A stretch of 64,000 nucleotides of DNA from a virus (IMGVR_UViG_3300031965_000935:4792-68791), one strand, 5' to 3'; shown: positions 15,532 through 42,281, counted from the stretch's first letter. Notes: generated by a model from the sequence alone, not told the origin. Program-made: numbers and translations.

Positions 15532-16066
15532 ATTTATCAAGGCATGGCATGGGGTAATCATAACCATAGTTGTCATAATGGTTATTTTTCTGGCAAGTGC
15601 TTTCTTGCCCCCCAATACCCTAACGCTGGCCCTGGCTTTTATCCCGATAGTCTATACCGCCTACCATGGCGGCTTATACCCGGGTCTGGCCGCCGCGACC
15701 GCTATTGCTATAGCCGCCTTTTTTGCACCTGGGCTACCTCTTCTCCGGGGTCTCCAGATTATCATTACCGCTTTCGCCATTGCCATTCCAATGGGAATTT
15801 TACAGGAGCAAACTAAACTCGTAAACAATGGCTACCTGGGCAAGATTACCGAAATACGGCTGCTGACCCGATTCTTATTAGACCACCGGCTAACCATGAA
15901 TGACGGCTTAATCTACCGCTTTCTAACCGAAATCATTGACCGGGCTGGCAACCTTGAAGCCCAGATTGCCCTTTGGAAAGATTTGAGAGAAGAAATCGAG
16001 GCCACCCAAAAACACCTCATGGATAGCCAGCTCATTAAGGCAGCAGAGGAAAATAACCATGGCTGA
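15524..16066 (+). CDS. multi-pass membrane protein, DUF4118-like
   Basis: Four hydrophobic segments; IPIVYTAYHGGLYPGL.AA resembles sensor-kinase membrane domains. Confidence 0.55.
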   Translation: MTKFIKAWHGVIITIVVIMVIFLASAFLPPNTLTLALAFIPIVYTAYHGGLYPGLAAATAIAIAAFFAPGLPLLRGLQIIITAFAIAIPMGILQEQTKLVNNGYLGKITEIRLLTRFLLDHRLTMNDGLIYRFLTEIIDRAGNLEAQIALWKDLREEIEATQKHLMDSQLIKAAEENNHG

Positions 16067-18443
16067 GCCGAAACAGAAGTCAATCGAAATCGCACCCCAT
16101 CTTCAACGCATCCTTCCCGCCTGGATAACTCCGATGTGGATAGACGCCGGCCGCTGGCGGTCGGTGGTACGAAATCAGCCGGTCGCCATCATTTGCCGTG
16201 ACCGCCTGATTACTTATGCTCAGGCGTTGCCCTGGGAAATTCGGGCAACTGACCTGTCAGAACAAAAAGCCCTTGAGCCGGACATCAAATACTACCGCGA
16301 TTTTGTTTTCAAGGAATTTGACCTGCTCATGGACTTGCTCTGGCAAGACGCCCTTGACCTGCCCATCGGCGGCAATGTTGAGGTGATACGCTGGCCGGCC
16401 GGGGCAATCCCGCGCCTAGAGATAGACGGGGAAACATATGAATTGACCCGGCCCTGGGAGCAGGGGCATGTATTTCGCCTGGCGTTCATGGATGGCGCAA
16501 CCGTTTTTCCGACTTATGACCCCACGATCCCGCTAATGCAGCGCATCACCCAGTTTCAAACCGCCCCGGTCTATTTCAACCGGAATGAGGTCAGGCGCAT
16601 TGTCCTGACCCCTCGCCCGGAGTGGCAGATGAAAGGTTATGGCATGCCGCCGCCGCAGCGGGTCTTTTTGGCGATCTCCCTCCTTTACCGGGGCGATCAA
16701 TACTATGCAAATTTACTCTTAGACACGCCAGAAGCCGGGGTGTTAGACCTCATGGACATGACCATGGAATCGGCCAGCCAGTGGCTATCTAGCTTTAAGT
16801 CGCTGGTCGAGGGGGTTGACCCCATGAAAATTGGCGTTTTGTATGAGCATGACCAGGCCGCCCGCTGGATTCCCTTTGGCCGGCCGCCGACCGACATGAT
16901 GTTCGAGAGCGTGACCGGACGCTATGCTCGGATGACCACAGCCGGCTACTGGCTGACCCTGACCGACCTGGGCCTTGAGGGTGGCGGCTCTACCATGGCC
17001 GGCGAGATACGCCGCCAACGGGAAGTCCGGCTGTCTGGCTTTGGCCTGGTCAGGGAAAAAACGAAAAACTTTATGGTCTCAGTCCTTCCCCCCTGGCTGA
17101 CTTTCCACTGGATCGAGAAGGATGACGAGGCCATGAGCGCCCTGGGTCGAGCCAGGCTCTTAAACGCCCAGGCCCTCAAGACTTTGCGCGATGCGGGCGT
17201 TGTCAGCGTGGAGGAAGCCCAGGCGCAGCTGGCGCAGGATGGCCTTTTAACAATCGAGCTAAAGCCGCCGGAGAAGGCTCCGCCCTTGCCGCCCTTGCCT
17301 GCCCCTGCCGGCAATGAATTGAGCTCGCCGAAATTGGCAAAAAAAGAAGCCGAACGCGTTCCCCCTTCTCAGGGGGGTGAGGGGGATGTCGGGGTACAGC
17401 GCGCCCTGACGGGTGCGGACTCGGCTGACAGGCTTGCGGCGAGCTCAGCCGAGCGGCTGGCCGACCTGATGAGCCTGGCTTTCCAGGATGTGACCCAGCA
17501 AGGCAAAGCGTCCCAGATTCGTAAGTTGATTAAGGCGGCCGCCCGGCGGCTCTTTGAGCTATCGGCTAAGGCATTGACCTCGCTGCCCGATTCGGACTTG
17601 CCCCTCTGGGCTGCCGAACGGGTCAACGCCTGGTTTGGTCAGCCTTCAGTCTTAGACGAGTTCCCTGAAGTCAAGAAGGCCGACCAGGCCCTATTTGACC
17701 AGCTTGATAAAATCTTAGATGGCGACCCCTGGTGGACATTGCCAGAGGCCATAGCTGAGGCGGTCGCGGCCGTGTTGGCTGGGGCTTACGGCGAGGGGGC
17801 AACTGGCGCGGCTGAGGAGGCTATGCGCTTTTTGTATGAGGAGGGGTTAGTCAGTTCGCCCGAGCTCATTGGGTTTAACTGGGAGCTGAAAAATCCGCGC
17901 ACCCTGGCCGAAATCAACCAGAGCGCCGCCCAGATGGTACGGCGGGTCAATGATGGGACAAAGCATTACCTGAAGTCCCTTATCGCCGCCGGGGTTGATG
18001 AGGGTTTGAGCAGTCAGGAGATAGCCGCCAGGATCAAAGAGGGTCAGGGGCTAGAGCAGATTATGCGCGATAGTCCCTTTTTAGATAGCGTGACCGAGGT
18101 GGTCAGGGGGGAAATCGGGGATATGCTTCAGAATAGGATTCAGAGCATTACAAACACTGAGATCGCCAAGGCTGAAACCAACGGGCGAATCGGCCAATGG
18201 GGTCGGATGGGCCTGAATAAAAAGAAATGGTCACACACTGGACTAGATACACCCTGCATGACTTGTACGGCAAACATCGAATTGGGCTATGTGTCTATAG
18301 ATTATCAATACACGACCGTCTTTGGGCCTGAGACAGCAGGGGGGCCGCCGGCACACCCGCGAATATGTCATTGTCACCTTGAATTTGATGAGGCGGAACT
18401 TTTAGACAAGGCTCGCAGTCTAAATGTCTGGAGCGGGGAATAA
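16059..18443 (+). CDS. portal protein fused to a MuF/gp7-like minor head domain
   Basis: N-terminal portal-like region (GYGMPP, LLLDTP.AGVL); C-terminal I.NTE...A..G, KW, C..C, PPAHP..C.C. Confidence 0.8.
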   Translation: MAEPKQKSIEIAPHLQRILPAWITPMWIDAGRWRSVVRNQPVAIICRDRLITYAQALPWEIRATDLSEQKALEPDIKYYRDFVFKEFDLLMDLLWQDALDLPIGGNVEVIRWPAGAIPRLEIDGETYELTRPWEQGHVFRLAFMDGATVFPTYDPTIPLMQRITQFQTAPVYFNRNEVRRIVLTPRPEWQMKGYGMPPPQRVFLAISLLYRGDQYYANLLLDTPEAGVLDLMDMTMESASQWLSSFKSLVEGVDPMKIGVLYEHDQAARWIPFGRPPTDMMFESVTGRYARMTTAGYWLTLTDLGLEGGGSTMAGEIRRQREVRLSGFGLVREKTKNFMVSVLPPWLTFHWIEKDDEAMSALGRARLLNAQALKTLRDAGVVSVEEAQAQLAQDGLLTIELKPPEKAPPLPPLPAPAGNELSSPKLAKKEAERVPPSQGGEGDVGVQRALTGADSADRLAASSAERLADLMSLAFQDVTQQGKASQIRKLIKAAARRLFELSAKALTSLPDSDLPLWAAERVNAWFGQPSVLDEFPEVKKADQALFDQLDKILDGDPWWTLPEAIAEAVAAVLAGAYGEGATGAAEEAMRFLYEEGLVSSPELIGFNWELKNPRTLAEINQSAAQMVRRVNDGTKHYLKSLIAAGVDEGLSSQEIAARIKEGQGLEQIMRDSPFLDSVTEVVRGEIGDMLQNRIQSITNTEIAKAETNGRIGQWGRMGLNKKKWSHTGLDTPCMTCTANIELGYVSIDYQYTTVFGPETAGGPPAHPRICHCHLEFDEAELLDKARSLNVWSGE

Positions 18444-19788: not shown

Positions 19789-20558
19789 TTTTCCATGAAT
19801 CGCCGCCGATTCTCCATCGTCACCGCCAGGCGGTCAAGCTGCTGGGCAGTCTGACCAAAGGCATGACGCAAGGGCAAGTCAAGGGCTTTTAGTGTAATCC
19901 CCATATTGATTGCCCGACAAGCCACGTCTAAATCCTCATAGTCGCAGAGCAAAAATCTTTCATCAAAAAGTCCTTCGTTTTCCGGGGGGTAAGCCTCCTT
20001 TTCGGCTTCGGCGTGAGCGCTCAGCCGAACGGTGCGAACAGCCATGAAATTCCAGGTCGGTCTAGTCATGGCCAGACACCAACCAGCCAGGTAGGATAAG
20101 ACGATAGGATCGCCACCCAAGACATGGCGGAAGCGGTTCCAGCCGGTGTCATGGCTAAACATTTCAGCCCCGATGATCATGCCATCCTGAATTGCCGCCT
20201 GAATCGGGCTGACGTAATCCCCTTGAGGGGTTACATCATTAGAAATAAAAATCAACAGATCGCCTGTGGCCGCCTCAGCTCCCCGGTTATTCCCCGGCCC
20301 GAAACCGGTATTCTCAGCCAGGTTCACCACCTGCATGCGGAAGGGCGTAAATTGCTCCTGCCAGTAATCCAGGTAGATCATAGTGTCATCGGTTGAGCCA
20401 TTGTTGACCATGACTATCTCTACTTCTGGCCGCTTAGAGAACAAGCGCCAGTGATGGGTTAGAAACTGGTGGGTCAAATCAGACCTATTCCAAACGGCGG
20501 TGATGATGGAAGTTTTCATTGACTTTCCTTCTTGAAAAATCTTAAACAATCCTGACAC
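19767..20558 (-). CDS. GT2 glycosyltransferase
   Basis: SIITAVWN, VNNGSTD, GFGPGNN.G, FISNDV, YEDLD. Confidence 0.9.
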   Translation of the reverse strand: MSGLFKIFQEGKSMKTSIITAVWNRSDLTHQFLTHHWRLFSKRPEVEIVMVNNGSTDDTMIYLDYWQEQFTPFRMQVVNLAENTGFGPGNNRGAEAATGDLLIFISNDVTPQGDYVSPIQAAIQDGMIIGAEMFSHDTGWNRFRHVLGGDPIVLSYLAGWCLAMTRPTWNFMAVRTVRLSAHAEAEKEAYPPENEGLFDERFLLCDYEDLDVACRAINMGITLKALDLPLRHAFGQTAQQLDRLAVTMENRRRFMEKWELVEV

Positions 20559-20737
20559 AATCTAACTACACTGCCCTGTATCTCTATTGATTGAACTTCT
20601 ATCCCTTGAAAATGCCCCCCGTTTACTCCATCACACCAGGAACTCCACATCCCATAGTTTTTTTCAAATTCGCTATTTCGGTTTTCTTTTGCACTGACTA
20701 ATGTTTGCACCATACTCCTTTCCAGGTGGCCGCCCAT
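20516..20737 (-). CDS. hypothetical protein
   Basis: Fills the operon gap; C-x-C..C..C residues; start uncertain. Confidence 0.4.
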   Translation of the reverse strand: MGGHLERSMVQTLVSAKENRNSEFEKNYGMWSSWCDGVNGGHFQGIEVQSIEIQGSVVRLCQDCLRFFKKESQ

Positions 20738-20925
20738 TCAGTTGAAAGGGCCCAGCATGGGCCTTCAATGCCCGGTGGCGGCGGGTTGATTTCTACCCAA
20801 ATGACCTTTTCTGGTTCATCCTGTACCTTAGTGGCCGACATTGAGGTTCTGATCTCAGCGTCGGTACAGGCCACTGTCAGAAAAAATAAAACCATTAAAA
20901 TAATTTTACCTAATTGGTTTTTCAT
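20698..20925 (-). CDS. predicted lipoprotein
   Basis: Basic N-terminus, hydrophobic core, lipobox-like TVAC. Confidence 0.55.
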   Translation of the reverse strand: MKNQLGKIILMVLFFLTVACTDAEIRTSMSATKVQDEPEKVIWVEINPPPPGIEGPCWALSTEWAATWKGVWCKH

Positions 20926-22118
20926 GATTGTTTCCTCATAAACTCGTGAATCGTCTCAGCCACATAGGGCGATTGCTCATCATTCCAGGCGGGAAGAAAC
21001 AGGCCGCCTTGCAGCACCAGGTCGGCTTGATGAGAAGGCCCACCTTTGATGATCTCGGCCTTCCAGGGCTGATAGGCCGGGTGCGCCAGGATATTCCCGG
21101 TGAAAAGGGGACGGATTTCGATCTTGTTTTCAATCAAGTGTTCAACCAGACCCCAGTAAAGTTCCTGGTTTGGGATGGTCAAGGGATAGCCAAACCAGAT
21201 GGGATCGTTTCCGGGGTGAACTTTGGGCAAGATGAAACGGCCTTCATACTGGGCCATTTCCTGGCCCAGCAAGGCAAAGGCCCGGCGGCGCATGGCAGTC
21301 AGGTCAGGCAAGCGCGTCAACTGGCCCAGGCCAAAGGCGGCCTGTACCTCGGTCATCTGTAAGTCATAACCAACGTGAGTATACCAGTATCGATTCCTAA
21401 ATCGGGCAAAGACCGTAGCATTATCAGGTAGGCGGGATTCATTGCGCCCCCAGTGAACCATACTCCTGACTTTTCGGTAAAAGCCCTGATTGTTTGTAAC
21501 CAGGGCTCCACCGACGCCGGCCGTGGTAACATTATGTGAGGCATAGAAAGAATAGGCGGCCGCTTCGCCAAATGTGCCAACTTGCTGACCTGCTGCTTTG
21601 CTGCCAATGGTGTCACAGCAATCTTCAATCAGCAGGCGGTCGCCAAGCATGTCCAGCACCAGGGCCATGTCAGGAGAATTGCCCAGCAGGTGAGGGATGA
21701 CTGCCCCTCGGATGTCTGGATGGTCGCGCAAGGCAATTTCCAGGGCATCGCACGAAAGATTACAGGTGCCCGGGTCTACATCAATCAGGACTGGGCGCAA
21801 ATCAAACAACAGGAGCGGATTCATGCTGGTTGGGAAGGTTAAATAAGGGTGTACAATCTTGTCCCCTGATTTCCAGATGCCCTCCTCTACCAGAATCTGG
21901 ACCGCCAGAAATATGGCTGATGTCCCGCTGTTGAGAGTCTGGCAGTGGGGTTGTTCAACCAGGGCGGCGAATTGTTTTTCAAACTCTTTGATGTAGCGGC
22001 CGGCGGCAAACCAGTCGCCGTCTAGCATTTTGAGCACCTGGTCTACTTCAGGCGCGCCCCAGACGACTCTATTGATGGTGATCGGGTCGCCCGGTTTCCA
22101 CTTTTTCCATTTGAGCAT
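20922..22118 (-). CDS. DegT-fold PLP/PMP enzyme, ColD/RfbH-like NDP-4-keto-6-deoxyhexose 3-dehydratase
   Basis: NSGTSA, TFPTSMNP, LIEDCCD, SFYASHN (His at the usual catalytic Lys), GYDLQMTEVQAA. Confidence 0.85.
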   Translation of the reverse strand: MLKWKKWKPGDPITINRVVWGAPEVDQVLKMLDGDWFAAGRYIKEFEKQFAALVEQPHCQTLNSGTSAIFLAVQILVEEGIWKSGDKIVHPYLTFPTSMNPLLLFDLRPVLIDVDPGTCNLSCDALEIALRDHPDIRGAVIPHLLGNSPDMALVLDMLGDRLLIEDCCDTIGSKAAGQQVGTFGEAAAYSFYASHNVTTAGVGGALVTNNQGFYRKVRSMVHWGRNESRLPDNATVFARFRNRYWYTHVGYDLQMTEVQAAFGLGQLTRLPDLTAMRRRAFALLGQEMAQYEGRFILPKVHPGNDPIWFGYPLTIPNQELYWGLVEHLIENKIEIRPLFTGNILAHPAYQPWKAEIIKGGPSHQADLVLQGGLFLPAWNDEQSPYVAETIHEFMRKQS

Positions 22119-22320
22119 GATTACTTGTCCTTTCAGTATTCACAACCGCAATGACCCAAAACACATTTTGAATTGGGATGACCTGAAAACAAATTATACT
22201 GGTGATGATGGCCGCCTCGTCACTATCAAACCGGGTCGGTTGCCCTATGAGGTTATCCATGTGGCCATGAATCTCATTTATTTCTGAATTATACCAACCT
22301 ATAACCTGCTGTTTTGTCAT
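22069..22320 (-). CDS. hypothetical protein
   Basis: 83-aa ORF within the operon. Confidence 0.4.
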   Translation of the reverse strand: MTKQQVIGWYNSEINEIHGHMDNLIGQPTRFDSDEAAIITSIICFQVIPIQNVFWVIAVVNTERTSNHAQMEKVETGRPDHHQ

Positions 22321-22387
22321 AACAGTTTAGTAGGTCCCCGGAGACATGGCGGCAACTAAAATGCCGCCTGGGGCTAGAAACTTATAA

Positions 22388-22646
22388 TTAACAGTCTTTC
22401 CAGTCTATAAACTCTAAAATTTCTTTCCCGTAAAGGGCAATCATGGCGCGCTCAAAGATTCCGTATTGTAAAGTTTTACAATAGCCGCCGGCCCGGCGAG
22501 AATCATGAACAACTGTCCGGCATAAGGTGCTTTACCACAGACCAGTCCGGATTCTCGATAGGTTGAGGCAGGGCCGCCTCTTGTCTCCGCTGAATTTCGG
22601 CCAGCAGTTCAGTTTCAGTAAATGATTTTAAGCAGTCAGGATTCAT
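22388..22646 (-). pseudogene. frameshifted hypothetical gene
   Basis: MNPDCLKSF...PIENPDWSVVKH continues in another frame as LCRTVV...GIFERAMIALYGKEILEFIDWKDC*; span 259 bp = 3n+1. Confidence 0.5.
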
Positions 22647-23475
22647 GTGTCATCTCCTTTAACGCCTCATCAACCGTCCTGAATTGCAGCCCAAGATCGG
22701 CGGCCAGGGCGGTTGCTAGCCCGCTGCCTTGTGGCCGTCTGGCCTGTCCAGGTAACAAAAACACGGTTATTTCCCGCCTGATAAGTTTCTCGTCAAAGCC
22801 AAAAGAACGGGCTATCCTGACGCCAAACTCGTAGCGGCTCATAATCTCTGGCCCGGCCAGATTTATTACGCCGTAATATTCGATGTCGGCCAGCTTCGAC
22901 ATGCTCAGCTTGACAAGGGCGGCCGCCAGGTCGGGGATGTAAGTTGGATTCCCGGTCAGATCGCAGGGGAGCCCGATATACTTTTCTTGGGCCAGTTTCT
23001 GGCGCAGACCGGAAACAAAGTCGCCACCGTCCGGGCCAAAAAGGTTCGTAGTTCTGATGATGACCGAGGCCGGCCGCCGGGCAATCAGGATACATTCTCC
23101 CAGGTATTTGGTCAGACCGTAAGCGCCCAGCGGGTTGGCCTGCTCATGACAAAGCGCATCCGGGTAGGGCGCGCCCTTGCCGTCGAAAATGAAGTCGGTA
23201 GACAGATGTATCAACCTGACTTGAGGGGGGAGCAGGGTGGCCAGATTGTAAACGCCCAAAACGTTTGAACGCAACGCTTCCATGGTATTGCTTTCCGCCC
23301 CGTCCACGTCGGTATAGGCGGCGCAGTTGATAAGACATGTCATGCCCTGGTCGGCAGCCTCGGTCAAGGCTGATGAAAGGGGCGCCGGATCGTCAATCCG
23401 GGCATAGATGGGCATACAACCCTCTTTGACCAATTGCCGGCCAAGCCGCCCTTTGGGGCCAGTAACAGCAATCAT
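22636..23475 (-). CDS. rmlD: dTDP-4-dehydrorhamnose reductase-like SDR
   Basis: VTGPKGRLG, INCAAYTDVDGAE, HLSTDFIFDG, YGLTK, GNPTY..DLA. Confidence 0.9.
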   Translation of the reverse strand: MIAVTGPKGRLGRQLVKEGCMPIYARIDDPAPLSSALTEAADQGMTCLINCAAYTDVDGAESNTMEALRSNVLGVYNLATLLPPQVRLIHLSTDFIFDGKGAPYPDALCHEQANPLGAYGLTKYLGECILIARRPASVIIRTTNLFGPDGGDFVSGLRQKLAQEKYIGLPCDLTGNPTYIPDLAAALVKLSMSKLADIEYYGVINLAGPEIMSRYEFGVRIARSFGFDEKLIRREITVFLLPGQARRPQGSGLATALAADLGLQFRTVDEALKEMTHES

Positions 23476-24519: not shown

Positions 24520-26700
24520 ATGAAAAATAGTGCATACTGTGAAATTGACCTGACCATCACCAAGGCGGCAGTCCAGCCTAATGGCTCGATTCGCTGGCAG
24601 GCGGTCGCCTCAGACACCGGCCTGGACAGGGTAGAGGAAAGAACCTCTTTACCTCTTTTTCAGGACTGGATCGAGCGGGTTGAAAAGGGCCTGACAACTC
24701 CGTTTCTGCCCGATGCCCCCCGCATGCCGTTTCTGGGCCTATCTCACTATCCGGCCCTGGGCGGCCTGGGCGAAGCTGGGCCGACTATCCGTATGTACAT
24801 AGATGGCGACCGCTTCAAAGCGGATGGGAATTTCTATCAAGATGAATTTCATCCCCTTGGCCCCTCTCTTTTTGGGGCCATTGCCACCGAGCGGGCATTG
24901 CTCAAGCGAGGAGAAGCGGTTGATAATCCAATCCGAATTTCAGCCGCCTGGTGGGATTTGCAGCATGCCCACGGCGACTTTGTTTTTACGCGGCGGTCAC
25001 TGGCCGACCGCTGCCCGCTTTGTGACCAGGGGGTGAAAGATAAAGTATACCTGAAAGGGCAACTCGACCATTTTGCCGCTACCCGGGTCCCGATGAACCC
25101 CCGGACTGATTTAACGCTGGAGGAAAAGTCTATGAAAAAGATTACCCGCAAAGAGGATGCTGCCTCGATTATTGACGATGATCTCCTGGTTGAAGCTCTT
25201 GATAAAAAAGCCCGGCTAGTCGGCAAGGCAGATACCGATCTTGGCGTGGACCCGGCGGCCCTGGTCATCCGGGCGACCTCTTTAGGCGACTATTTGCGCC
25301 AAAAGAGGGAAGCCCTGGAATTGTCGCTAGAGGACGCGGCCGCCGAGCTAGATTTAGAGGCTGATGACCTGAGCGCCATTGAAGCCGGCAAAACCGTATT
25401 TCCGGCCAAAGAGGTCTTGAGCGCTCTGGCAAAGCTCTACAAAGTTGAGGCAGACGAGCTCATAGGCATGTTGCCTAAACCCAAACGTAAGGCAGACCTG
25501 GGCGAGCTCGGTTCGACTGAGACCTCGGCGAGCTCGGTCGAGCCGCTCACCGAAGTCACCCCTGAGCAATTCAACCCAGCCCAATTTGACAAACTTACCA
25601 AAAAGGCGGCCATGATGAAAACAGTGGACGGGGAGGATTATCCTGCCTCTGACTTCCTGGTAGTCGAGGACCCGGAAGGGCCGTCAACCTGGCATCTGCA
25701 GGTCAGGCGGCAGGGCGAAATTGACCACCGGCTCATGGGAGCGGCCTGGGCAGCCTTACACGGCGGCTACCGTGGCAACAAATACGAGGGGCCGGAAAAG
25801 GGGAAAGCCCTGGCCACTCTCAAGAAACTGTATAAGGCGGAAGAGATGCCAATGCCAAATGAAAAGAGCCTGGCTTCGACCCTTCCACAAGGTCAGGGCT
25901 CAGCCGAAAAAATGGGCAACGGCCATTTCGACAGGCTCAATGGCGAAGGAATGGAAGCCTATCCCGAGATGCCCAAGCCCCTGGGCGGTGCGCTTTCGAT
26001 TGATGAGGCTGAAACCTATCTCGATTCAAACGAGAAAATGAGGAGACTTTACAGTAACTGGGACATTTTCAACCAGGTGACAGGCAACATTATGGCTGAT
26101 GAGGAAATGGCCCCGGCCGATCGGATTAAGGCCCTGGGAACGGCGATTGAGGACTTTGGCGACCGGGTGGCGGCATTAAAGGCATCTCTAGCCGATGCGT
26201 TCCTCTTGACCCAGAGCGCCGCCGATGAATGGGTAACAGCCGATGGATATAACGAGGTAATAACTGAGACCCCCGTTCAAGCGGGGCACAACGAAGGGAG
26301 TAATATCATGAGCATTGAGACAACTGTAGATGGAATCGTGGCGAACGGGGCCTTATCCAAAGAGCAAAAGGCGGCCGCGATTCAAGAGGCTTTCCAGGGG
26401 TACGCTGAGACGGTCAAGGGCAAGCTGGACACCGAACCGGCCGCCCCGCCTGACCCGGCGGCTACACTTAAAGGGGCGCTGGCTGAAGCGTTAAGCCCAC
26501 TAACTGAGCAGCTTGGCCTGCTCATTGCCAAACTGGCTCAGCCTACCCAGGCGCAGCCTCAGATGACCCTGACTGCCTGGCCGCAACAAAAGTCCCTGGC
26601 CCCTGGCTATCAGCCGCAAATCGTTGATGATGGCCCTGCGAAAAAGATTATGAGCCCCCTGACAGCGGCCATCCGGCGTTCAGTGGGTATCGTAGAGTAG
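24520..26700 (+). CDS. prohead protease/scaffold polyprotein with an internal XRE HTH
   Basis: N-terminal ASDTGLDR protease-like region upstream of the capsid gene; LGDYLRQKRE...SLEDAA.ELDL....LSAIEAG; acidic C-terminal scaffold. Confidence 0.75.
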   Translation: MKNSAYCEIDLTITKAAVQPNGSIRWQAVASDTGLDRVEERTSLPLFQDWIERVEKGLTTPFLPDAPRMPFLGLSHYPALGGLGEAGPTIRMYIDGDRFKADGNFYQDEFHPLGPSLFGAIATERALLKRGEAVDNPIRISAAWWDLQHAHGDFVFTRRSLADRCPLCDQGVKDKVYLKGQLDHFAATRVPMNPRTDLTLEEKSMKKITRKEDAASIIDDDLLVEALDKKARLVGKADTDLGVDPAALVIRATSLGDYLRQKREALELSLEDAAAELDLEADDLSAIEAGKTVFPAKEVLSALAKLYKVEADELIGMLPKPKRKADLGELGSTETSASSVEPLTEVTPEQFNPAQFDKLTKKAAMMKTVDGEDYPASDFLVVEDPEGPSTWHLQVRRQGEIDHRLMGAAWAALHGGYRGNKYEGPEKGKALATLKKLYKAEEMPMPNEKSLASTLPQGQGSAEKMGNGHFDRLNGEGMEAYPEMPKPLGGALSIDEAETYLDSNEKMRRLYSNWDIFNQVTGNIMADEEMAPADRIKALGTAIEDFGDRVAALKASLADAFLLTQSAADEWVTADGYNEVITETPVQAGHNEGSNIMSIETTVDGIVANGALSKEQKAAAIQEAFQGYAETVKGKLDTEPAAPPDPAATLKGALAEALSPLTEQLGLLIAKLAQPTQAQPQMTLTAWPQQKSLAPGYQPQIVDDGPAKKIMSPLTAAIRRSVGIVE

Positions 26701-26896: not shown

Positions 26897-28114
26897 ATGT
26901 TTACGGTTCCTCAGATTTTCCCTGGTGAAAAGGTTTTAAATTTTGGCGGTGGCTCTGGTGTGCGCGGTGACGGCAGTCCAGTCGTTTCCCAGGGCGCTTT
27001 CATCAGCCGCACCACCGACCCCCTGGTCTTGCCGCAGCCCTACGCGCAGCCGGCCGATTTTACGGCTCAGTATCCGATCCCCCTGGATCCGACTGAGCTT
27101 ATTGCCATGTGCGAGGAGGTCACGGCATGGGCGGCCATCCCTGAGATTGAAAGCCCGCTGAACGGCATCACCTGGCGCGAGCTCAACAGCCTTGCTTTCA
27201 CCTCTGGCTCGAACTACATCGCCTTTGCCGATGGGGAGTGCCCGGAGGAGTTTACGGCTAACGGCGACAATACCACCATCAACCACAAGAATATCGGCGC
27301 AAAAAAGAGCCTCAGCCAGCGTGACATCAAACACTCCATGGCCGTAGCCGGCTATGGCATCAACGGCATCAATCGGCTCATTGGCGGCATCCCCTCTAGC
27401 GCGGGCCTGCCCGGCGGCTCGGATACAGCCACCTTTGTCCAGGAAGCGGTCGCGGACGCCAAGGAAAAAGAGGTCCGCAAAGCTATGACCCTGACCTTGA
27501 ACGGATGGGATCGTCTGTTGGTCCTGGGTGATGCCACTACCCGGCCGCTCGAATTTGATGGTATAGAGAATTTGGTCACAGCCGCAGGCGGCTCGCATGT
27601 CAACTCGAGCGCCCCCTCCGGGACCTTCAGCGCGGCCACCTTTGACAGATTCCTGTCCGAAAGCTGCGCCAAGCCGACCCACATTTTTGGCCACCCGCAG
27701 GCCGTGCAAGAGATGCTGTCCGGCTACTTCCAGTTGGGGTTTGCCGGTTCCCAGGTCATTCAATTCGACAATGGCAACCGCCTTACCCCAGGGTTTAACT
27801 TTGCCGGGTTTGTCAATACCGGCGTAGGCCGCCTGGCCGTAATTTCAGACAACAACTTTACCCGGGCCAACCTCGGCGGCGGGACGTTCTTTAGCACCCT
27901 GTTTGGCCTGAGAATGACCCACAACGGCGAGCCCCTGGTCTACAAAAGCACTCAGATTCCTTTACAGATGGTAGACCTGGTGCCCGGCTGTACGGCGGTA
28001 TCGTTTGAGGTCTGGGCGGCCACATCGCTGATTATCAAGCACCTGTGCGCGCATGGTCGATTCTCTGCAGTTTTCAGCGGAAACATCGTGACGACCTGTC
28101 CCGTGATCGGTTAG
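26897..28114 (+). CDS. major capsid protein
   Basis: 405 aa after the protease; AGGAG RBS; PLEFDGIE; followed by a strong terminator. Confidence 0.8.
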   Translation: MFTVPQIFPGEKVLNFGGGSGVRGDGSPVVSQGAFISRTTDPLVLPQPYAQPADFTAQYPIPLDPTELIAMCEEVTAWAAIPEIESPLNGITWRELNSLAFTSGSNYIAFADGECPEEFTANGDNTTINHKNIGAKKSLSQRDIKHSMAVAGYGINGINRLIGGIPSSAGLPGGSDTATFVQEAVADAKEKEVRKAMTLTLNGWDRLLVLGDATTRPLEFDGIENLVTAAGGSHVNSSAPSGTFSAATFDRFLSESCAKPTHIFGHPQAVQEMLSGYFQLGFAGSQVIQFDNGNRLTPGFNFAGFVNTGVGRLAVISDNNFTRANLGGGTFFSTLFGLRMTHNGEPLVYKSTQIPLQMVDLVPGCTAVSFEVWAATSLIIKHLCAHGRFSAVFSGNIVTTCPVIG

Positions 28115-28152: not shown

Positions 28153-28190
28153 AATAGGGGATGGGGGTTACTCCCCGTCCCCTATTTTTT
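28153..28190 (+). terminator. intrinsic terminator after the capsid gene
   Basis: aataggggatgggg-gttact-ccccgtcccctatt-tttt. Confidence 0.8.
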
Positions 28191-28227
28191 TGACCGCAAT
28201 AAGCTGGCGGGAATTTAGGTAATAGAT

Positions 28228-28584
28228 ATGGAAAATATTGGAAAGTTGCTTGAATTAACCCAACAGATCATGGTCTTGCGTCATCTGCCAGGGGAGCACA
28301 ACCAGAAAACGCATGGCTCTGGCGGCGTTGGCGGCATCTTTGAGGAACTGCCTAAAAATCTAACCCTATTAACCAAAAAGACGAAAAACAGCATCGTGGG
28401 CAAACTGGCGGCTTTGTCAGCCAACGATCTAAGATCAGCTCGTGACCAGAACGACAAAGAATGGGCTGAAGCCCACAAGAGCCATGATAGGGACAAAATC
28501 CAGGCGGCTTGGGTTAAGGATGGTCTCATAGAATTTGCTATAAAGAAACGGAAAAAAGACCTGGAGAAACAACTAAAGTCCTGA
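28228..28584 (+). CDS. basic protein with the LRHLPGEHNQKTHG tag
   Basis: Motif shared with 28929..29918. Confidence 0.65.
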   Translation: MENIGKLLELTQQIMVLRHLPGEHNQKTHGSGGVGGIFEELPKNLTLLTKKTKNSIVGKLAALSANDLRSARDQNDKEWAEAHKSHDRDKIQAAWVKDGLIEFAIKKRKKDLEKQLKS

Positions 28585-28665
28585 TGTCCTAACAGCCTCC
28601 AACTCGAATAATAATACATCCTGATATATTATAATATGAGATAAATATTGTTTTCGGAGGCTGCA

Positions 28666-28932
28666 ATGAGAATTATCGGAGTACACGTACCAAAAGCCGG
28701 CGGGCTTTCCTTGCGCGATCATCTGGAGCATATTTTTGGCGAGGATCGGATAATCTACGACTATAACCACGTAGACCGCCCAGGAGCCAAGGTAAAAGAG
28801 TTCTTTGACCTCTGGCCCTCTTTGGTCGAGGCCGAGCCTCACCCGAATCAGGGGTCGCTATTCGGCCCTTCGGGGCGGAGCAAAGAACAATTGATTGAAG
28901 CCTGGATAAAGCAGGGGGAATATAGCCAATGA
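28666..28932 (+). CDS. truncated sulfotransferase-like protein
   Basis: MRIIGVHVPKAGGLSLR resembles the 5'-PAPS-binding HxPKxGGxS motif; far too short for a full enzyme. Confidence 0.5.
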   Translation: MRIIGVHVPKAGGLSLRDHLEHIFGEDRIIYDYNHVDRPGAKVKEFFDLWPSLVEAEPHPNQGSLFGPSGRSKEQLIEAWIKQGEYSQ

Positions 28933-29918
28933 GCCTTATAACCGAAAAAGCCGATTTGAAGGGGCAAGTAAACCGCTATTTGACCTTATTATCAAGTCTT
29001 GAGTTTACCCCAGTGAGTCTCATAGAGGACTTGCAATACTTTAAGGGGCTGGTCGAGTTTGCGGATCCGAGTGAACTAGAATCGCTCTATGGGGACTGGT
29101 CAGAAATCAGGCCCAGAGATCAGCGATCTATGGCCTATATTCTGGACAGGGATATAAGCAAACTGCCTATGCCCCAAAAAAGCACATTTCAGGCGATTCT
29201 AGCCTTACGAGGGGGAAGTAACCCTGACAACTCTGGGCGCGCTGTCCAGTCAAGAAAAATGGTCTTGCGTCATCTGGCCGGCAAACACAACCAGAAAACG
29301 CATGGGACAGGCGGCGGCAAAGGAGCGGTCAGGAGCGTATCTCCTGAGCGCAAAGAACAGGGCAAAGCGTCAAAACAATCACAAGACGCCAAAAGTAAGA
29401 AGTTTGGCTGGCGGTCTAAGGCCATGGCAAACCTTGAAACAGAAATAGCCGGGGCCTCAAGAGAAAGCGCAGCCGCCTACGATAAGAACGGAAAAGAACT
29501 TTTTAAGATAGGCGGTAAACAGTCTGAGGTAAACTTTTCGGATGACCAATTGAGACAAATGAAAGGGGCAATTGTCACTCATAATCATCCTTCAACTATA
29601 AATGGTAAAAAATACCCGGACGGGGGGTCATTTTCTCCTAGCGACATCCAGCTTATGCTAAATACCGGGGCGGCGGAAGTAAGGGCCGTCACTGAAAATT
29701 ATATCTATCGGGTGCGCCCGAAACTGGTCGGCGGTCAGCCGGTCAGGAATGCCCTAAATTTTTTAGACCGGCGTAAGGCAAAGGTGCAATCCTCTTTATC
29801 AAAAGAGTATCAAAAGGGCAAGATGACTAAAGAGGCTTATGCTGTTGAATTTTGGCATCAACTCTGGCAAGGTGCGGCTGATGAGGGGCTATTAGAATAT
29901 GAAAGGATAGATCGCTAA
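28929..29918 (+). CDS. head-associated protein with C-terminal JAB/MPN-like domain (putative toxin)
   Basis: LRHLAGKHNQKTHG tag; E.AAAYD.NG...IVTHNHP...SFSPSDI. Confidence 0.7.
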   Translation: MSLITEKADLKGQVNRYLTLLSSLEFTPVSLIEDLQYFKGLVEFADPSELESLYGDWSEIRPRDQRSMAYILDRDISKLPMPQKSTFQAILALRGGSNPDNSGRAVQSRKMVLRHLAGKHNQKTHGTGGGKGAVRSVSPERKEQGKASKQSQDAKSKKFGWRSKAMANLETEIAGASRESAAAYDKNGKELFKIGGKQSEVNFSDDQLRQMKGAIVTHNHPSTINGKKYPDGGSFSPSDIQLMLNTGAAEVRAVTENYIYRVRPKLVGGQPVRNALNFLDRRKAKVQSSLSKEYQKGKMTKEAYAVEFWHQLWQGAADEGLLEYERIDR

Positions 29919-31024
29919 TGCCATTTACAATAGACAAAGAGCGGGCTGACATGTTTGAAGTCGAGCCTTTGGTTGACGAAACAATAACCAAAGCCGGTGC
30001 GCGTCATACCCGTACCGAGTTTGCAACCATTCAGGAGATACATGATACCATGGCCGCCTGGGGCGCAGTCTGTGAAGTGCCCCGGCCTTATCCGCTCGAC
30101 AAGCTCGCGGTCAAGGCCGGGGCCAAACATTCGCGGGCTGACCTGGCGGCGATTCAGACTATCCATGACTTGACCCTTGAGTTAGGCGCAAAATGCCCAC
30201 TCCCCCGGCTGTACCCGGTTGCCGAAGCGCAAAAGGCCCTGACCTACAAGGCAAACAACCAGGGGGCAATGGTCGCTTTATTCTTGCCGCCGGAGAAAGC
30301 GGGGCAATACGCATTGCCGGCCGGGATAGTCAAAGATAGAACTCCTCCCAATGAGTTACATTTGACCCTGGTCTATTTGGGTCAGTCTAATGAGCTCTCT
30401 GATGCCCAGAAACTGGGGCTACATCAGGGGATTATGGCTCTATCTCAACGGTGGGGGCCTATAGCGGGGCATATTAACGGGGTAGGGCGGTTTTGCAATG
30501 GGTCTAAGCCCGGTCAAGTGGATGATGAAGGGGACCCATTTTTTATCATTCCAGACCTGCCGGCCCTGGTCGAGTTTCGGGACGATCTGCTAACTAAGAT
30601 TGCCCTGACCGGGGTAAAGCCGTCGGCCGATCATGGTTACACTCCTCACATTACCCTGGCATATATCGAGCATGATGCCCCCAATCCCTTTAGCCAATTG
30701 GATAGAGCGGCGATAGAGTTTCCGCACCTGAGCCTGGTATTTGGCGAGGATCGCTATGATTACGCTTTCTTGGGCGGCCGGCCTTACGCGCAAAAAAGTC
30801 AGGCCGACGCGCCAAATTACCACCCGACCCATTGGGCCAGACGGTGTGAGAATTGTACTTTCTTTGGCGGCCAGGATGGGATAGATGACCGTTGCACCCG
30901 GTTTGATTTTGTAGCCGACCTGGATTATGTCTGTGATGACTGGTCGGCTCAGAATCCTGACGAGATTCCGGGTTTCGAGGGCAAGTCTTTGGCTGAAGTG
31001 GCAGCCCTGATCTTTAGTCAGTAG
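29918..31024 (+). CDS. multidomain protein: two KAGA(R/K)H repeats, 2H phosphoesterase, C-terminal four-Cys domain
   Basis: LHLTLVYLG and YTPHITLAY (two HxT motifs); Y...CENC.FF...C......VCD.W. Confidence 0.8.
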   Translation: MPFTIDKERADMFEVEPLVDETITKAGARHTRTEFATIQEIHDTMAAWGAVCEVPRPYPLDKLAVKAGAKHSRADLAAIQTIHDLTLELGAKCPLPRLYPVAEAQKALTYKANNQGAMVALFLPPEKAGQYALPAGIVKDRTPPNELHLTLVYLGQSNELSDAQKLGLHQGIMALSQRWGPIAGHINGVGRFCNGSKPGQVDDEGDPFFIIPDLPALVEFRDDLLTKIALTGVKPSADHGYTPHITLAYIEHDAPNPFSQLDRAAIEFPHLSLVFGEDRYDYAFLGGRPYAQKSQADAPNYHPTHWARRCENCTFFGGQDGIDDRCTRFDFVADLDYVCDDWSAQNPDEIPGFEGKSLAEVAALIFSQ

Positions 31025-31487: not shown

Positions 31488-32177
31488 ATGAAGAAAATCG
31501 CTCTAATAACCCCAGTCTGGAATAAGGCCGACCTGACACACCAGTACCTGTCAGGTCATTGGTACTTTTACCAGGCGCGGCCCTCGGTCGAGTTTGTTGT
31601 CATAGACAATGGCTCAAATGATGAGACGCAAGGGTTGCTCAGAACCTGGCAAAAAGTTATGAAAGAACGGCTAACCATTCTTTCCAACAAAAAGAACATG
31701 GGCTTTGCCAGGGCCTGCAACCAGGGAGCGGCTCAGACCGAGGCCGACATCCTGGTCTTTATCAATAATGATGTGATTGTCCAGGGGGATTATCTGAGAC
31801 ATATCGAGGCTGCCTTAACTGAGAACCTGCAAAGTCTGGTAGGAGCGGCCTATCTGGACTATGACACCGGCTGGAATCGATTCAGGACTGAGACTGGTCG
31901 GGAAATTATCATTCCCTACCTGGCCGGCTGGTGTTTGGGCCTACATCGGCTTGATTTTGAGCTTTTAAGAAACTTTGATGAACAATATAGCCCGGCTGAC
32001 TATGAGGATTTAGATTTCTGTTATGAAGCCACACAGAAAAATTACCAGCTTGTCGGCCTTGATTTGCCCCTGGCCCACCTGGGCGCCCAGAGCGGGGGGC
32101 AGTTAGTGAACAGGCGCGAAATTACCCGCCAAAACCGGGAAAAGTTCAAAGTAAAGTGGAGACTGTATGAACCTTGA
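31488..32177 (+). CDS. GT2 glycosyltransferase (paralogue of 19767..20558)
   Basis: ALITPVWN, IDNGSND, GFARACNQG, NNDV, YLAGWCL, YEDLD. Confidence 0.9.
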   Translation: MKKIALITPVWNKADLTHQYLSGHWYFYQARPSVEFVVIDNGSNDETQGLLRTWQKVMKERLTILSNKKNMGFARACNQGAAQTEADILVFINNDVIVQGDYLRHIEAALTENLQSLVGAAYLDYDTGWNRFRTETGREIIIPYLAGWCLGLHRLDFELLRNFDEQYSPADYEDLDFCYEATQKNYQLVGLDLPLAHLGAQSGGQLVNRREITRQNREKFKVKWRLYEP

Positions 32178-32568
32178 AGATTTGAAACTGTCTAAAAAAA
32201 CCACCCTGGCTTTAGAAAAAGCTGGATGGCAGATTATGGAACTGGCGACCGCCTCAGTCGGTCAACTAGTCGCTATTGGCCTGACTGAGCGTGAGGCGGT
32301 CAAGGCCATTGGGGCGGCTGGCCGCCTGGTCAATGAAGCAAAAAAACTTGAGGCATACCGGGCCGATGTCCTATCTATCATTCCCCCTTCTCCGCCCAAC
32401 GCTCCTTCTCGCCCCTCGCCACCTCCTCCAGTCTACGGCCCGGCCACCTCAGCCGCTTTTCCTGAAGATTGGTTGAGCGGCCAGACCGCCCCGCCGCCGA
32501 TGTCTCTCAGGGTCCAGCGCATCTTTGACCAGGCGGTGAGGGATTATCAAGCCGTCAAGCGTTATTAG
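32167..32568 (+). CDS. HhH/alpha-CTD-like N-terminus with Pro-rich tail
   Basis: LEDLKLSKKT..ALEKAG...ELA.AS..QL..IGL. Confidence 0.5.
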   Translation: MNLEDLKLSKKTTLALEKAGWQIMELATASVGQLVAIGLTEREAVKAIGAAGRLVNEAKKLEAYRADVLSIIPPSPPNAPSRPSPPPPVYGPATSAAFPEDWLSGQTAPPPMSLRVQRIFDQAVRDYQAVKRY

Positions 32569-32669
32569 TCCTTTGTCATTTGTCCATTGCTAACAATCTA
32601 ATGACTAATGCTAATGACTGGTGACGGTTCGACTGAGCTCACCGAAGTCAAAGGACTAAGGACAAATAG

Positions 32670-33572
32670 ATGATCCGTTGCGTTTTGACGAGTATTTACT
32701 ACCCTATGGCCATTTTGAGATACTTTGAAGCGGCCTTGCGCCGGCGGCCTGATGTAGAGCTCTTTACTGTTGGCCCTTTCACCGGCCCGGCTATCCCCTG
32801 GAATGGCGGCATGACACTGCCCCAAAAATACGCCATTGCCCCTGATTTGCCCTTGGGCAACATTGTCCAGGGGAACGTTCCTATTAACTACATTGAAACC
32901 CTTTTACCCTGGTCGCCTGACCTCTGGCTGCAAGTAGACGCCGGCTTTTTCCTGAGCGGGCGGCCAAAAAGCGGCTTAAATGCCTTTGTGGGCACGGATC
33001 CACACGTGTTGGACTACAGCCTCCAGCGGGCGCTGGCCGACAAGTTTTTCTGTATGCAGGCATATTATGCCCAGGGGAGGGACGAATATCTACCCTATGC
33101 TTATGACCCCCTCTGGCATGCCCCAGAAAAGCAGCCTCGGCGGTATGATGTAGTTTTGCTTGGCCTACATTACGAGAATCGGAATCGTTTAGTGAGCGAA
33201 CTCAAACGTCAGGGGGTAAATGTGTTTTATGAACTGGGGCCTGTTTTTGACGAGGCGCGGGCCATTTATAACAGCGCTCCCCTGGGCCTCAATTGGTCGA
33301 GTTTGAATGACCTGACGGCCAGGGTCTTTGAGCTCCTGGGCATGGGCCGGCTGGCAGTGGTCAATCGCGTGCCCGACCTGGGGCAATTCTTTGAAGATGG
33401 CCGCGATCTGGCCGCCTTCGATTCGTTAGGTGAGGCAGTAGAAAAGGTTTTGCACTATCTGGCCCATCCAGAACAGGCGGCAGCCATTGCCCACCAGGGA
33501 AAGAAAACGGTCGCCCCACACACCTGGGACGACCGGGTTGAGCAAATATTCAAAACTTGCAAACTGGTTTAA
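32670..33572 (+). CDS. CgeB-like glycosyltransferase
   Basis: LPYAYDP, YDVVLLG, NR.RL, LN....RVFE.LG.G, F.DG.DL..F. Confidence 0.85.
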   Translation: MIRCVLTSIYYPMAILRYFEAALRRRPDVELFTVGPFTGPAIPWNGGMTLPQKYAIAPDLPLGNIVQGNVPINYIETLLPWSPDLWLQVDAGFFLSGRPKSGLNAFVGTDPHVLDYSLQRALADKFFCMQAYYAQGRDEYLPYAYDPLWHAPEKQPRRYDVVLLGLHYENRNRLVSELKRQGVNVFYELGPVFDEARAIYNSAPLGLNWSSLNDLTARVFELLGMGRLAVVNRVPDLGQFFEDGRDLAAFDSLGEAVEKVLHYLAHPEQAAAIAHQGKKTVAPHTWDDRVEQIFKTCKLV

Positions 33573-38951: not shown

Positions 38952-39324
38952 CGATCTGCCCCGATTTAACATTGTTCACCACCTGGGCGAACCCAACACA
39001 GCCGAATTTGAGGGCGTTAAAATCAGCCGCCAGAAAGCCCTTTTTATAAGGGAATGGGGACGATTCGTGCCTTGTGCGCCGTATGATAATCACTTTGTAT
39101 TTGAAACCCCCGCAAAAGCCAAAAAAATAGGTATGAGCGAATACATGTGTACCTGCGGGTCAGCGGCGGTCGTGGCCAGGCCGGAAAAAGAGACAACCCG
39201 CATGTTTGTTTGTCTTTTTCACGCCACCTACGGCGCACACCAGACTTCGGTCATCAATAAGGCTGATTTTGGACAAGACCTGCCCCAGATTATCATGCCA
39301 AAGGCTAAAAAATGGCTGACCTGA
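38944..39324 (+). CDS. hypothetical protein with Cys/His cluster
   Basis: MNDDLPRF...CTCG...CLFH; coupled start. Confidence 0.55.
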   Translation: MNDDLPRFNIVHHLGEPNTAEFEGVKISRQKALFIREWGRFVPCAPYDNHFVFETPAKAKKIGMSEYMCTCGSAAVVARPEKETTRMFVCLFHATYGAHQTSVINKADFGQDLPQIIMPKAKKWLT

Positions 39325-40430
39325 AGATTGACGTATATTGCAATGATGGCTCACCTATCGGAATAGATTGGCGGCATATCTATGAGGGACTGGGGATAGG
39401 CGGAGCGGAACTCGCCTTGTTCACCTGGGCTGAATTTATGGCCCGGCGCGGTCATCAGGTCAGGATTTACAACGACCCAGCAGAACCCGGGACCTATCAG
39501 GGCATAGAATTTTTATCCCAGAATAAATTTGACCCCTCGGAAAACAGGGATGTTTTCATAGCCTGGCGCTCGCCCAATCGGTTTATACAGAAAGCACGCG
39601 GCTACCGGATTCATTGGTCAACCGACCAGTATACCAGCGGGAATTTTGCCACTGATATTGTGCCTTATGTTGACAAGATTGTCTGTATTTCCCCGTTTCA
39701 TCGAAAATACTATCTGGAGCGATACGGGCCGCCGGAGACAAAGATCGTCTACCTCGATCTAGGAGTGCGTCTTGAAGATTACACGATGCAGCCAAAGAAA
39801 GTGGCTTGTCGGTGTATTTTTTGCAGCGTGCCCGACCGGGGACTGCAGCTTGTCCCTAATATCTGGTCGGTCATCAAAGAGGCAGTACCCGACGCTTCCC
39901 TGGTTATCACTTCAGATTATCGCCTTTGGGGGTCGCAAAATCCGCTCAATTATCAGCATCGGTTAAATATGGTCGGGCAAGAGGGGACTGTTTACTTGGG
40001 GGCGATTCCTCGGCCTAGACTCATTGCCTTACAATCCGAGGCTCAGGTACACTTGTATCCATGTACCTACGACGAATTATTCTGCATCAGTGCCGCCGAG
40101 TGTCAGGTCGCCGGGGCCTATCCGGTTACAAGCGCCATGGGTGCGCTAGAAACAACCAATGAGTTTGGCATAACTTTCACTGGCCACCCGGAATCTCCGG
40201 CCTGGCAAAAGGAATATACGGCGACAGTCATTGAGTTACTGTTAAACCAAGAAAGCCTGACCGCCAGGGCTGAAGCCTGTATGGAACGCGCCCGGGTGCG
40301 CTTCAGTTGGGATAAAATTTGCGATAAATGGGAAAAGATGCTGAATGGTTCGGCAGGCTCACCACAAGGTGGGGCGGCCGCCGATTCGCCCGCCCGGAAG
40401 CGGGTTACTAAAAAGGTTAAGGTTGTATGA
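39312..40430 (+). CDS. GT4 glycosyltransferase
   Basis: GGAE, SVPDRGL, ELFCISAAECQ.AG. Confidence 0.9.
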   Translation: MADLKIDVYCNDGSPIGIDWRHIYEGLGIGGAELALFTWAEFMARRGHQVRIYNDPAEPGTYQGIEFLSQNKFDPSENRDVFIAWRSPNRFIQKARGYRIHWSTDQYTSGNFATDIVPYVDKIVCISPFHRKYYLERYGPPETKIVYLDLGVRLEDYTMQPKKVACRCIFCSVPDRGLQLVPNIWSVIKEAVPDASLVITSDYRLWGSQNPLNYQHRLNMVGQEGTVYLGAIPRPRLIALQSEAQVHLYPCTYDELFCISAAECQVAGAYPVTSAMGALETTNEFGITFTGHPESPAWQKEYTATVIELLLNQESLTARAEACMERARVRFSWDKICDKWEKMLNGSAGSPQGGAAADSPARKRVTKKVKVV

Positions 40431-42274: not shown

Positions 42275-42281
42275 GGAAAAG

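Follow-up and report, generated by a model that had tools for sequence, protein, structure and literature searches.

A putative capsid-cargo locus in a soil siphophage, with shared leader motifs, a RadC-like JAB domain and a LigT-like 2H phosphoesterase

How tailed phages other than T4 choose the proteins that they pack and inject is largely unknown. In T4, the capsid targeting sequence (CTS) of IPI-III and Alt is removed by the gp21 prohead protease (PMC7411985). The concept of packaged effectors has already been published for polyvalent proteins: packaging and injection were predicted for the RadC and 2H domains of such proteins and of those fused to MuF or to the portal, the 2H domains were proposed to degrade 2'-5' or cyclic nucleotide signals, and RadC was listed among the polyvalent-protein domains, a nucleic-acid substrate being favoured over a ubiquitin tail (Iyer et al. 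2017, PMC5512222). Here we report on positions 28,228 to 31,024 of IMGVR_UViG_3300031965_000935:4792-68791, a viral DNA of 64,000 nucleotides (hereafter the window) that makes up most of a source genome of 68,791 bp with 52.7% G+C. The phage is uncultured; its DNA was found in soil metagenomes, no RNA data set being listed for it, and its gene content is of the siphophage type. Three genes behind the major capsid gene, here called orfA, orfB and orfC, probably form a variable cargo locus, namely a polyvalent protein that was split into three genes, permuted and partly scarred, and whose products would be loaded into the capsid. We regard this as the best available reading because of a conserved peptide motif, of an element otherwise found behind prohead proteases and of the position of the genes at the distal end of the head genes.

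The open reading frame (ORF) orfA (28228..28584, plus strand, 118 aa) encodes a leader helix, a His-rich motif and a small helical module. The product of orfB (28929..29918, plus strand, 329 aa) consists of an N-terminal helical domain (residues 1-101), a decayed Gly-rich motif, the His-rich motif, a Lys-rich linker and a RadC-like JAB domain, and that of orfC (29918..31024, plus strand, 368 aa) of two copies of what we call the protease-tail motif, a LigT-like 2H phosphoesterase and a four-Cys module. The stop codon of orfB overlaps the start codon of orfC (T-A-A-T-G, 29916-29920; one-base gene overlap), indicating translational coupling. The His-rich motif occurs only twice in the 68.8-kb genome, at 28270..28317 (plus strand; orfA residues 15-30, M-V-L-R-H-L-P-G-E-H-N-Q-K-T-H-G) and at 29259..29306 (plus strand; orfB residues 111-126, M-V-L-R-H-L-A-G-K-H-N-Q-K-T-H-G), and the two encoded 16-residue peptides differ at two positions. 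Both copies lie in a direct repeat of 58 nt (28270-28327 and 29259-29316) with 50 of 58 nucleotides identical (86%), and the same codon is used at 8 of the 10 shared core residues and at all four preceding residues (M-V-L-R); because the codons are near-identical, the copies are taken to be recent paralogues. The initial annotation of this stretch had noticed the shared peptide MVLRHL(P/A)G(E/K)HNQKTHG with its near-identical DNA, a JAMM-like HNHP...SxxD domain at the end of one protein, and a coupled next gene with two repeats, two HxT motifs and a four-Cys tail. All of these were recovered, the repeat at the same coordinates, and the motif search across phages that had been proposed as a check found the peptide to be widespread. 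The K-(A/S) sites described between the modules of orfC do exist, as seven dipeptides in the 368-aa protein, two of which open the repeats and one of which precedes the Cys module, but they are the least informative item.

A scan of IMG/VR with an exact degenerate DNA pattern for the His-rich motif gave 115 in-frame matches at 93 loci, and a contig frequently had two or three of them; just 2 of the matches, in very short ORFs of 21 and 53 residues, seem fortuitous. The consensus is hydrophobic(-3), [K/R/F](-1), H-L-x-G-x-H-[D/N]-Q-K-x-H-G, followed by a Gly-rich stretch. Codon identity at the shared motif residues was 0.65 within genomes and only 0.42 between genomes, so that selection appears to act on the peptide and not on the DNA. 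Pfam matches among 76 non-redundant carriers were Phage_Mu_F (9), ADPrib_exo_Tox (8), DUF3626 (8), Zeta_toxin (4), portal (3), ART-PolyVal (2), NUDIX (2) and S78 (2), together with HNH and 2H, which are the domains typical of polyvalent and MuF-linked effectors. A MuF signature was present at 39 of the 93 His-rich loci versus 11 of 119 loci fetched with another motif, among the matches listed. Ahead of the JAB domain, distant orfB orthologues (35-48% identity) retain [RK]-H-(L)-x-G-x-H-x-Q-K-x-H-G. Judged by these sequence patterns, the His-rich peptide is a conserved leader or junction motif of MuF- and portal-linked multi-enzyme phage proteins, where it precedes ART, Zeta, NUDIX, DUF3626, 2H and JAB modules. 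A tblastn search of cultured phages with a 27-residue motif peptide gave no match, and a literature search with the peptide strings of the His-rich and Gly-rich motifs returned nothing relevant and no paper describing them. In a metagenomic protein of 2179 aa (P0055), a unit made up of leader, His-rich motif and JAB domain occurs four times in tandem, and downstream of the last unit come a fifth His-rich motif, a domain without assignment, MuF and a further C-terminal region.

The position of the motif bears on whether it addresses a protein or merely marks a place to cut. Of the 93 distinct sites, 67 are internal, between modules, and 26 lie in the first 50 residues, with at least 47 residues always downstream. 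If the His-rich and Gly-rich motifs were mere processing sites or hinges, with loading, if any, left to MuF, portal or protease partners, the internal sites would be expected, as would the 11 His-rich matches within 60 residues of a MuF signature (some directly behind the MuF domain) and the flexible Gly-rich stretch that always follows the motif. A separator would, however, have nothing to separate at the 26 early sites, which lie in stand-alone proteins, and both carriers in the window are separate genes, with neither MuF nor a protease in the same chain. The 12-residue invariant core also exceeds what the known prohead-protease sites of T4 and HK97 require. We consider a purely cleavage-related role unlikely.

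The third gene, orfC, carries instead a repeated element, K-A-G-A-[RK]-H ... I-Q-x-I-H-D, at 29990..30073 (copy a, plus strand, residues 25-52, K-A-G-A-R-H-T ... I-Q-x-I-H-D ... G-A-x-C) and 30113..30196 (copy b, plus strand, residues 66-93), which was modelled as helix at residues 32-47 (a single helix) and 73-88, respectively. The pattern I-Q-x-I-H-D-x4-L-G-A-x-C was found at no fewer than 119 loci (at least) in IMG/VR. In the matches listed, the extended consensus is K-[AV]-G-A-R-[NH]-S-x-x-D-x3-I-Q-x-I-H-D-x4-L-G-A-x-C, the motif typically lies near residue 160 of proteins of 260-350 residues, and 85 non-redundant carriers include Peptidase_S78 (33), S78_2 (18) and DUF6582 (8), with the motif about 10-25 residues behind the catalytic domain of the S78 prohead proteases. 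In one listed carrier the protease is fused to the capsid protein, and two or three have a 2H domain at the usual place of the protease. By its sequence, the repeat on orfC is thus an element that normally stands behind the S78 prohead-protease catalytic domain, and its presence on a stand-alone 2H cargo protein is new in the window.

The 2H core of orfC (30230..30781, plus strand, residues ~105-288) contains H148-x-T150 and H244-x-T246, and all four residues are invariant in 24 sequences. Pfam 2_5_RNA_ligase2 (PF13563) matched orfC at 34.3 bits against a cut-off of 27, and the core was modelled with a pLDDT of ~90. Foldseek placed drCPDase of Deinococcus (5h7e, E 2.3e-10) and E. coli LigT (3e-9) at the top, and Acb1 (7t27) only 36th with E 1.7e-4, behind LigT, archaeal 2'-5' ligase-like, rotavirus VP3 and AKAP18 structures; no Acb1-type family appeared in the Pfam output for the window proteins. 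On sequence and model, orfC belongs to the 2H superfamily, but the Acb1 proteins are not its closest relatives. The comparison with Acb1 and CBASS in the initial annotation therefore reduces to superfamily resemblance of a LigT/ThpR-type core, not clade membership, and because Acb1 ranks only 36th a CBASS link is no better founded than other 2H activities. In cultured actinophages the same 2H domain is annotated as 'RNA ligase' beside head genes and is also found inside 'capsid maturation protease and MuF-like fusion' proteins; Arthrobacter phage Laroye, in which portal, MuF and 2H genes are adjacent, has none of the motifs. Behind the 2H core lies the four-Cys module A-P-N-Y ... C-x-N-C ... 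C ... C-D-x-W (30809..30943, plus strand; Cys310, 313, 326, 339), which is conserved in the relatives P0013-P0026 and P0002, was modelled with low confidence, has a weak HIPIP match (E 0.038) and is probably metal-binding. Many marine or freshwater phages of IMG/VR (L217-L232) encode this module by itself, as a protein of 67 aa, the pattern scan giving 16 loci.

The kinship of this core with cellular LigT/ThpR enzymes would also suit a simpler idea, that all three proteins simply work in the cytoplasm as late enzymes (the 2H enzyme, for instance, in RNA-end repair) and are never packaged, their shared peptides being metal-binding or regulatory. The three His of the motif, with its Gln and Asn/Asp, could indeed bind metal, and a terminator-like hairpin separates the capsid gene from the cargo genes. 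This idea leaves unexplained that in hundreds of phage contigs the motifs are associated with proteins of the MuF, portal and prohead-protease kinds and that the position of the locus behind the capsid gene is conserved in a sister phage; moreover, these 2H versions never accompany RNA ligases (Iyer et al., PMC5512222). We give it little credence.

The sister phage (L215/L347) resembles the window phage in its head proteins (capsid 74% identical and 406 aa long there, portal-MuF 55%, protease/scaffold 45%). Its capsid gene is followed by genes for a 352-aa H-E-x-x-H protein that is zincin-like in sequence, a 528-aa ddrB-ParB protein, a 611-aa protein and a 644-aa 2H protein, and then by a sulfotransferase gene. 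The 352-aa and 528-aa proteins open with an orfA-type leader helix, which is followed by a Gly-rich motif, G-S-G-N-W-G-H-x-G-R-x-G-x-x-G-G-S. In the 611-aa protein, to residues 1-105 of which the orfB N-terminal domain is 43% identical, leader helix and Gly-rich motif stand behind an N-terminal domain, and in the 644-aa 2H protein the Gly-rich motif is internal. The orfA leader (residues 3-25) matches that of the ddrB-ParB protein, the two aligning as far as L-R, after which the window has the His-rich and the sister phage the Gly-rich motif. Since the same leader helix is followed by either motif in sister phages, the two motifs are positionally interchangeable, and they appear from these alignments to do the same job; this swap of two tag types behind one leader is new in the window. 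In IMG/VR the Gly-rich motif was found at at least 114 loci and at least 170 distinct sites, up to nine per contig. Among the matches listed the two motifs never share a locus; P0002 nevertheless has both, and L220 has the His-rich motif twice, one copy standing behind a leader helix where P0002 has the Gly-rich motif. No head protein was found to have been replaced between the sister phages in a way that would explain the switch, and because all head proteins are orthologous no tag receptor can be inferred.

The history of the locus is mosaic. Between orfA and orfB lies a 94-aa chimeric remnant ORF (28648..28932, plus strand), which joins a sulfotransferase N-terminus to the C-terminal end of a ddrB-ParB-type cargo gene: in blastp, residues 6-48 matched the L215 Sulfotransfer_2 protein (53%, E 9e-14) and residues 32-94 matched the last 64 residues of the L215 528-aa protein (47%, E 3e-19). 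It still shares an overlap with the start of orfB, an arrangement also shown by the intact gene of the sister phage, and is on this evidence of sequence a recombination scar. In orfB the decayed Gly-rich segment is followed by M-V-L-R and the His-rich patch, which is exactly the 58-nt repeat. The shared tag might accordingly be a scar as well, a 58-nt patch copied during module shuffling and functionless here, since the repeat begins precisely at the end of the leader helix with near-identical codons, next to a decayed motif and a two-gene chimera. We judge this very improbable: recombination accounts for the arrival of the copy and not for the retention of the motif, neither copy has lost any invariant residue of the family-wide motif, and the motif is conserved as a peptide between genomes whose codons agree so little.

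Relatives carry the modules of the three window genes in other arrangements. The module behind the orfA His-rich motif recurs behind the same motif in P0002 (37% over 73 residues, E 6e-12) and in L220, both of which add an orfA-like module there; a stand-alone homologue of orfA of similar length was not found, and the Atlas gave no usable feature match for orfA and only weak structural rows. In P0013-P0026 the order is 2H, protease-tail motif twice, Cys module, sometimes an HNH-like segment, a helix ending in I-L-x-L-R-G-G, then G-N-W-G-H-x-G-R-K-G-K-R-G-G-S-G, a Lys-rich linker and a JAB domain, and in P0005 the orfB N-terminal domain is joined directly to orfC. As the same modules are fused into one polyprotein in P0002, P0013-P0026, L220 and P0055, the three window genes are best understood as modules of one shuffled system.

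The JAB (JAMM) domain of orfB (29376..29915, plus strand, residues 150-329) was assigned from its model (pLDDT ~90), Foldseek, VIA-align and invariant metal-site residues. Its sequence contains H-N-H-P at 218-221 and S-P-S-D at 236-239, and E179, H218, H220, S236 and D239 are invariant in 8 homologues and nearly so in 69 distant members, so the catalytic residues are intact here as in the 2H enzyme. Foldseek ranked RadC (2qlc) and archaeal JAMM1 (5lda/5ld9) highest, with probabilities of 0.87-0.96 at E values of only 0.02-0.06; VIA-align of residues 155-328 gave moderate scores for JAMM1 (Z 6.8), the CBASS deconjugase Cap3 (Z 6.6) and Rpn11 (Z 5.6-5.8). Pfam did not match orfB itself; among 69 longer family members, 4 match RadC (PF04002; best E 1.3e-6) and 1 Prok-JAB, 28 carry Phage_Mu_F and 3 carry 2H, and several have 2-4 tandem JAB copies. 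A profile search of 1.84 billion representatives returned 3925 JAB-family cluster representatives at E<=1e-3. A profile search of solved structures gave NTF2 as the only match for orfB, which was judged to be chance. Taken together, sequence and model place the domain in the RadC-like branch, a common appendage of MuF proteins.

That this domain is a processing protease which cuts the leader or junction, rather than an injected effector, is scarcely credible: JAMM enzymes cleave after a Gly-Gly tail, and relatives do have a leader ending in the ubiquitin-tail-like I-L-x-L-R-G-G immediately before the Gly-rich motif and JAB, as well as the tandem motif-JAB units of P0055, yet the window leader ends L-R-H and not L-R-G-G, most carriers have no JAB, and RadC/JAB is absent from the 19 Pfam families matched among the 76 carriers. 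The RadC branch is moreover said to lack the ubiquitin-tail groove (PMC5512222), and action on ubiquitin-like conjugates, which the initial annotation had cited for JAB proteases, is argued to be unlikely for it in the same source. The proposal of a tag-directed cargo kit is supported by comparison as far as motif distribution, protease-tail element and locus position are concerned; its toxin side is not, there being no immunity-like gene between 28228 and 31024 and no toxin signature found.

For the capsid-loaded cargo locus that we favour, we infer loading, trimming and ejection from the analogy with the T4 CTS and from the prediction of Iyer et al. (2017). The cargo units of orfA and orfB both open with an amphipathic leader helix specific to the lineage, then the His-rich motif, then a flexible linker rich in Gly and Lys; orfC has instead two copies of the helix motif that is normal behind the S78 catalytic domain. 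The cargo genes would be expressed late, together with the head proteins, and the short elements would dock the cargo to the procapsid interior, be it the scaffold/protease, the inner face of the capsid or the portal-MuF protein. The probable prohead protease may then trim the cargo at or near the leaders, and at the next infection the enzymes would be ejected together with the DNA. Once injected, the LigT-like 2H enzyme could hydrolyse 2',3'-cyclic phosphate RNA ends, 2'-5' linkages or cyclic-oligonucleotide signals, and the RadC-like JAB could act as a metalloenzyme on nucleic acid or on a protein conjugate.

Several observations weigh against this scheme. The motif regions were modelled as disordered (pLDDT 27-35) and so give no structural hint of how docking would occur. 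The 726-aa protease/scaffold protein of the window phage itself has no protease-tail motif. An intrinsic-terminator-like hairpin followed by a T run (28159..28195, plus strand; terminator scan match 28163-28182) stands directly after the capsid gene, between it and the cargo module. With its chimeric 94-aa ORF and the decay of the Gly-rich motif in orfB, the locus is partly degenerate and may contain relics, and our literature search found no report of virion incorporation, cleavage or ejection for any motif carrier. A complex prediction for orfA with the MuF domain (portal residues 560-794) scored 0.01, which is not evidence either way.

A wider proposal, which we advance with distinctly more doubt, is that the leader with its His- or Gly-rich motif and the protease-tail motif serve as exchangeable address labels, by which HK97-type tailed phages in general load proteins into the capsid and process them, and that the JAB and 2H proteins of the window are first-minute counter-defence enzymes delivered with the DNA. 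If such a portable label exists, injected effectors (anti-defence enzymes, toxins) would be predictable from genomes, there would be a handle for loading foreign proteins into capsids, and the free swapping of effector modules between phages would be explained.

The cargo genes form the distal end of a head-gene block, with the large terminase (TerL, 11477-13189), portal-MuF, protease/scaffold and capsid genes upstream. The portal protein (16059..18443, plus strand, 794 aa; PHROG portal phrog_2662) has a C-terminal MuF (head-morphogenesis) domain (phrog_2468 at residues 611-775) and the MuF signature P-P-A-H-P-x-x-C-x-C at its C-terminus, and is a possible anchor for the cargo. The fusion of portal and MuF in one chain is kept in L347 and L214 (55-58% identity). 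The 726-aa head-assembly protein (24520..26700, plus strand) comprises a putative prohead-protease fold (residues 1-245), an XRE-type helix-turn-helix (HTH) domain (255-313; HTH_31, E 8.8e-12) and a scaffold-like C-terminal half, in which residues 502-686 weakly match a head-maturation-protease PHROG. Its N-terminal part gave nothing in Pfam (E<=10) or with hhalign against an S78 alignment; the Atlas structure comparison of residues 1-245, the one source that points there, matched S78 clusters (TM 0.55/0.59) and S77 clusters (0.59/0.70), so that a prohead-protease fold is probable from the model. An HTH in the middle of a protease/scaffold protein, kept in the sister phage, is an unusual place for a DNA-binding domain. 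The major capsid protein (26897..28114, plus strand, 405 aa) weakly matches a PHROG major head protein.

Elsewhere in the window, the genes include a primase, helicase loader, helicase, methyltransferases and a sigma factor (8906-9838), and the tape measure protein and tail fibre are encoded at 51164-53917 and 62481-63680. A response-regulator receiver protein (Response_reg, E 5.7e-8; 14406-15095) is encoded downstream of the terminase gene and upstream of the portal gene. Many genes for sugar modification are scattered among the head genes, at 19198-23475 (minus strand), 31488-33572 and 39312-43368; the set consists of family 2 and family 1 glycosyltransferases, a DegT-type aminotransferase, an epimerase and a methyltransferase, is also carried by L215 and L216, and suggests glycosylation of virion or host-surface components. 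The 15-nt motif T-T-T-C-G-A-Y-A-G-G-C-T-C-A-A occurs 10 times at <=2 mismatches, versus 0.2 expected, at 11460, 13204(-), 14890(-), 23811, 25926, 31157, 31173, 44201, 50081(-) and 55290. Intergenic DNA holds the sites 13204- and 23811+, each just behind a T-rich stretch, and the pair 31157/31173+; the head operon and the cargo genes lie between 23811 and 31157. The motif is possibly a promoter or regulator site specific to this phage, which encodes a sigma factor of its own.

Compared with the polyvalent proteins (PMC5512222), the locus has the same repertoire, with a RadC-like JAB and a 2H domain in the window and ddrB-ParB and zincin-like proteins in the sister phage, a like association with the genes for portal, terminase and head, relatives in which the modules are fused, and the same predicted fate. 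It differs in that the window modules are separate genes behind the capsid gene, not fused to MuF, that orfA and orfB each have their own leader and orfC has protease-tail motifs, and that each cargo gene encodes at most a single catalytic domain where polyvalent proteins have 2-15 effector-type domains per chain (Iyer et al. 2017); the text of that paper describes none of the His-rich, Gly-rich or protease-tail motifs. With the MuF polymorphic toxins (Jamet et al. 2017, PMC5576092) it shares the His-rich motif, which in many carriers lies between MuF and ART/Zeta domains, although that paper mentions no junction motif, linker or cleavage. In the window, unlike in those toxins, MuF is fused to the portal, the cargo is separate and no toxin-immunity pair is evident. 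The 2H fold with its two H-x-T motifs is common to orfC, the LigT/ThpR 2',3'-cyclic phosphodiesterases and Acb1 (PDB 7T26/7T27). The structures nearest to orfC are nevertheless of the bacterial LigT type (E 2e-10 to 1e-8), against E 1.7e-4 for Acb1.

For HK97, Duda, Oh and Hendrix are said to have found in 2013 that the C-terminal region of gp4 brings the prohead protease into the procapsid. The gp4 protein itself lacks the I-Q-x-I-H-D ... L-G-A-x-C motif, but in other phages the protease-tail motif directly follows the S78 domain, reportedly the same position as that of the gp4 targeting region. With the T4 CTS the window motif has no sequence similarity; it is longer, is N-terminal in orfA (15-30) and internal in orfB (111-126), being found elsewhere too between modules, and it belongs to an HK97-type siphophage and not to a T4-like phage. 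In both cases, however, a short peptide, N-terminal in T4, is shared by proteins that have nothing else in common; in T4 these proteins travel in the head and are ejected, and the same may hold here. By this analogy the CTS provides the model for how the tag could act.

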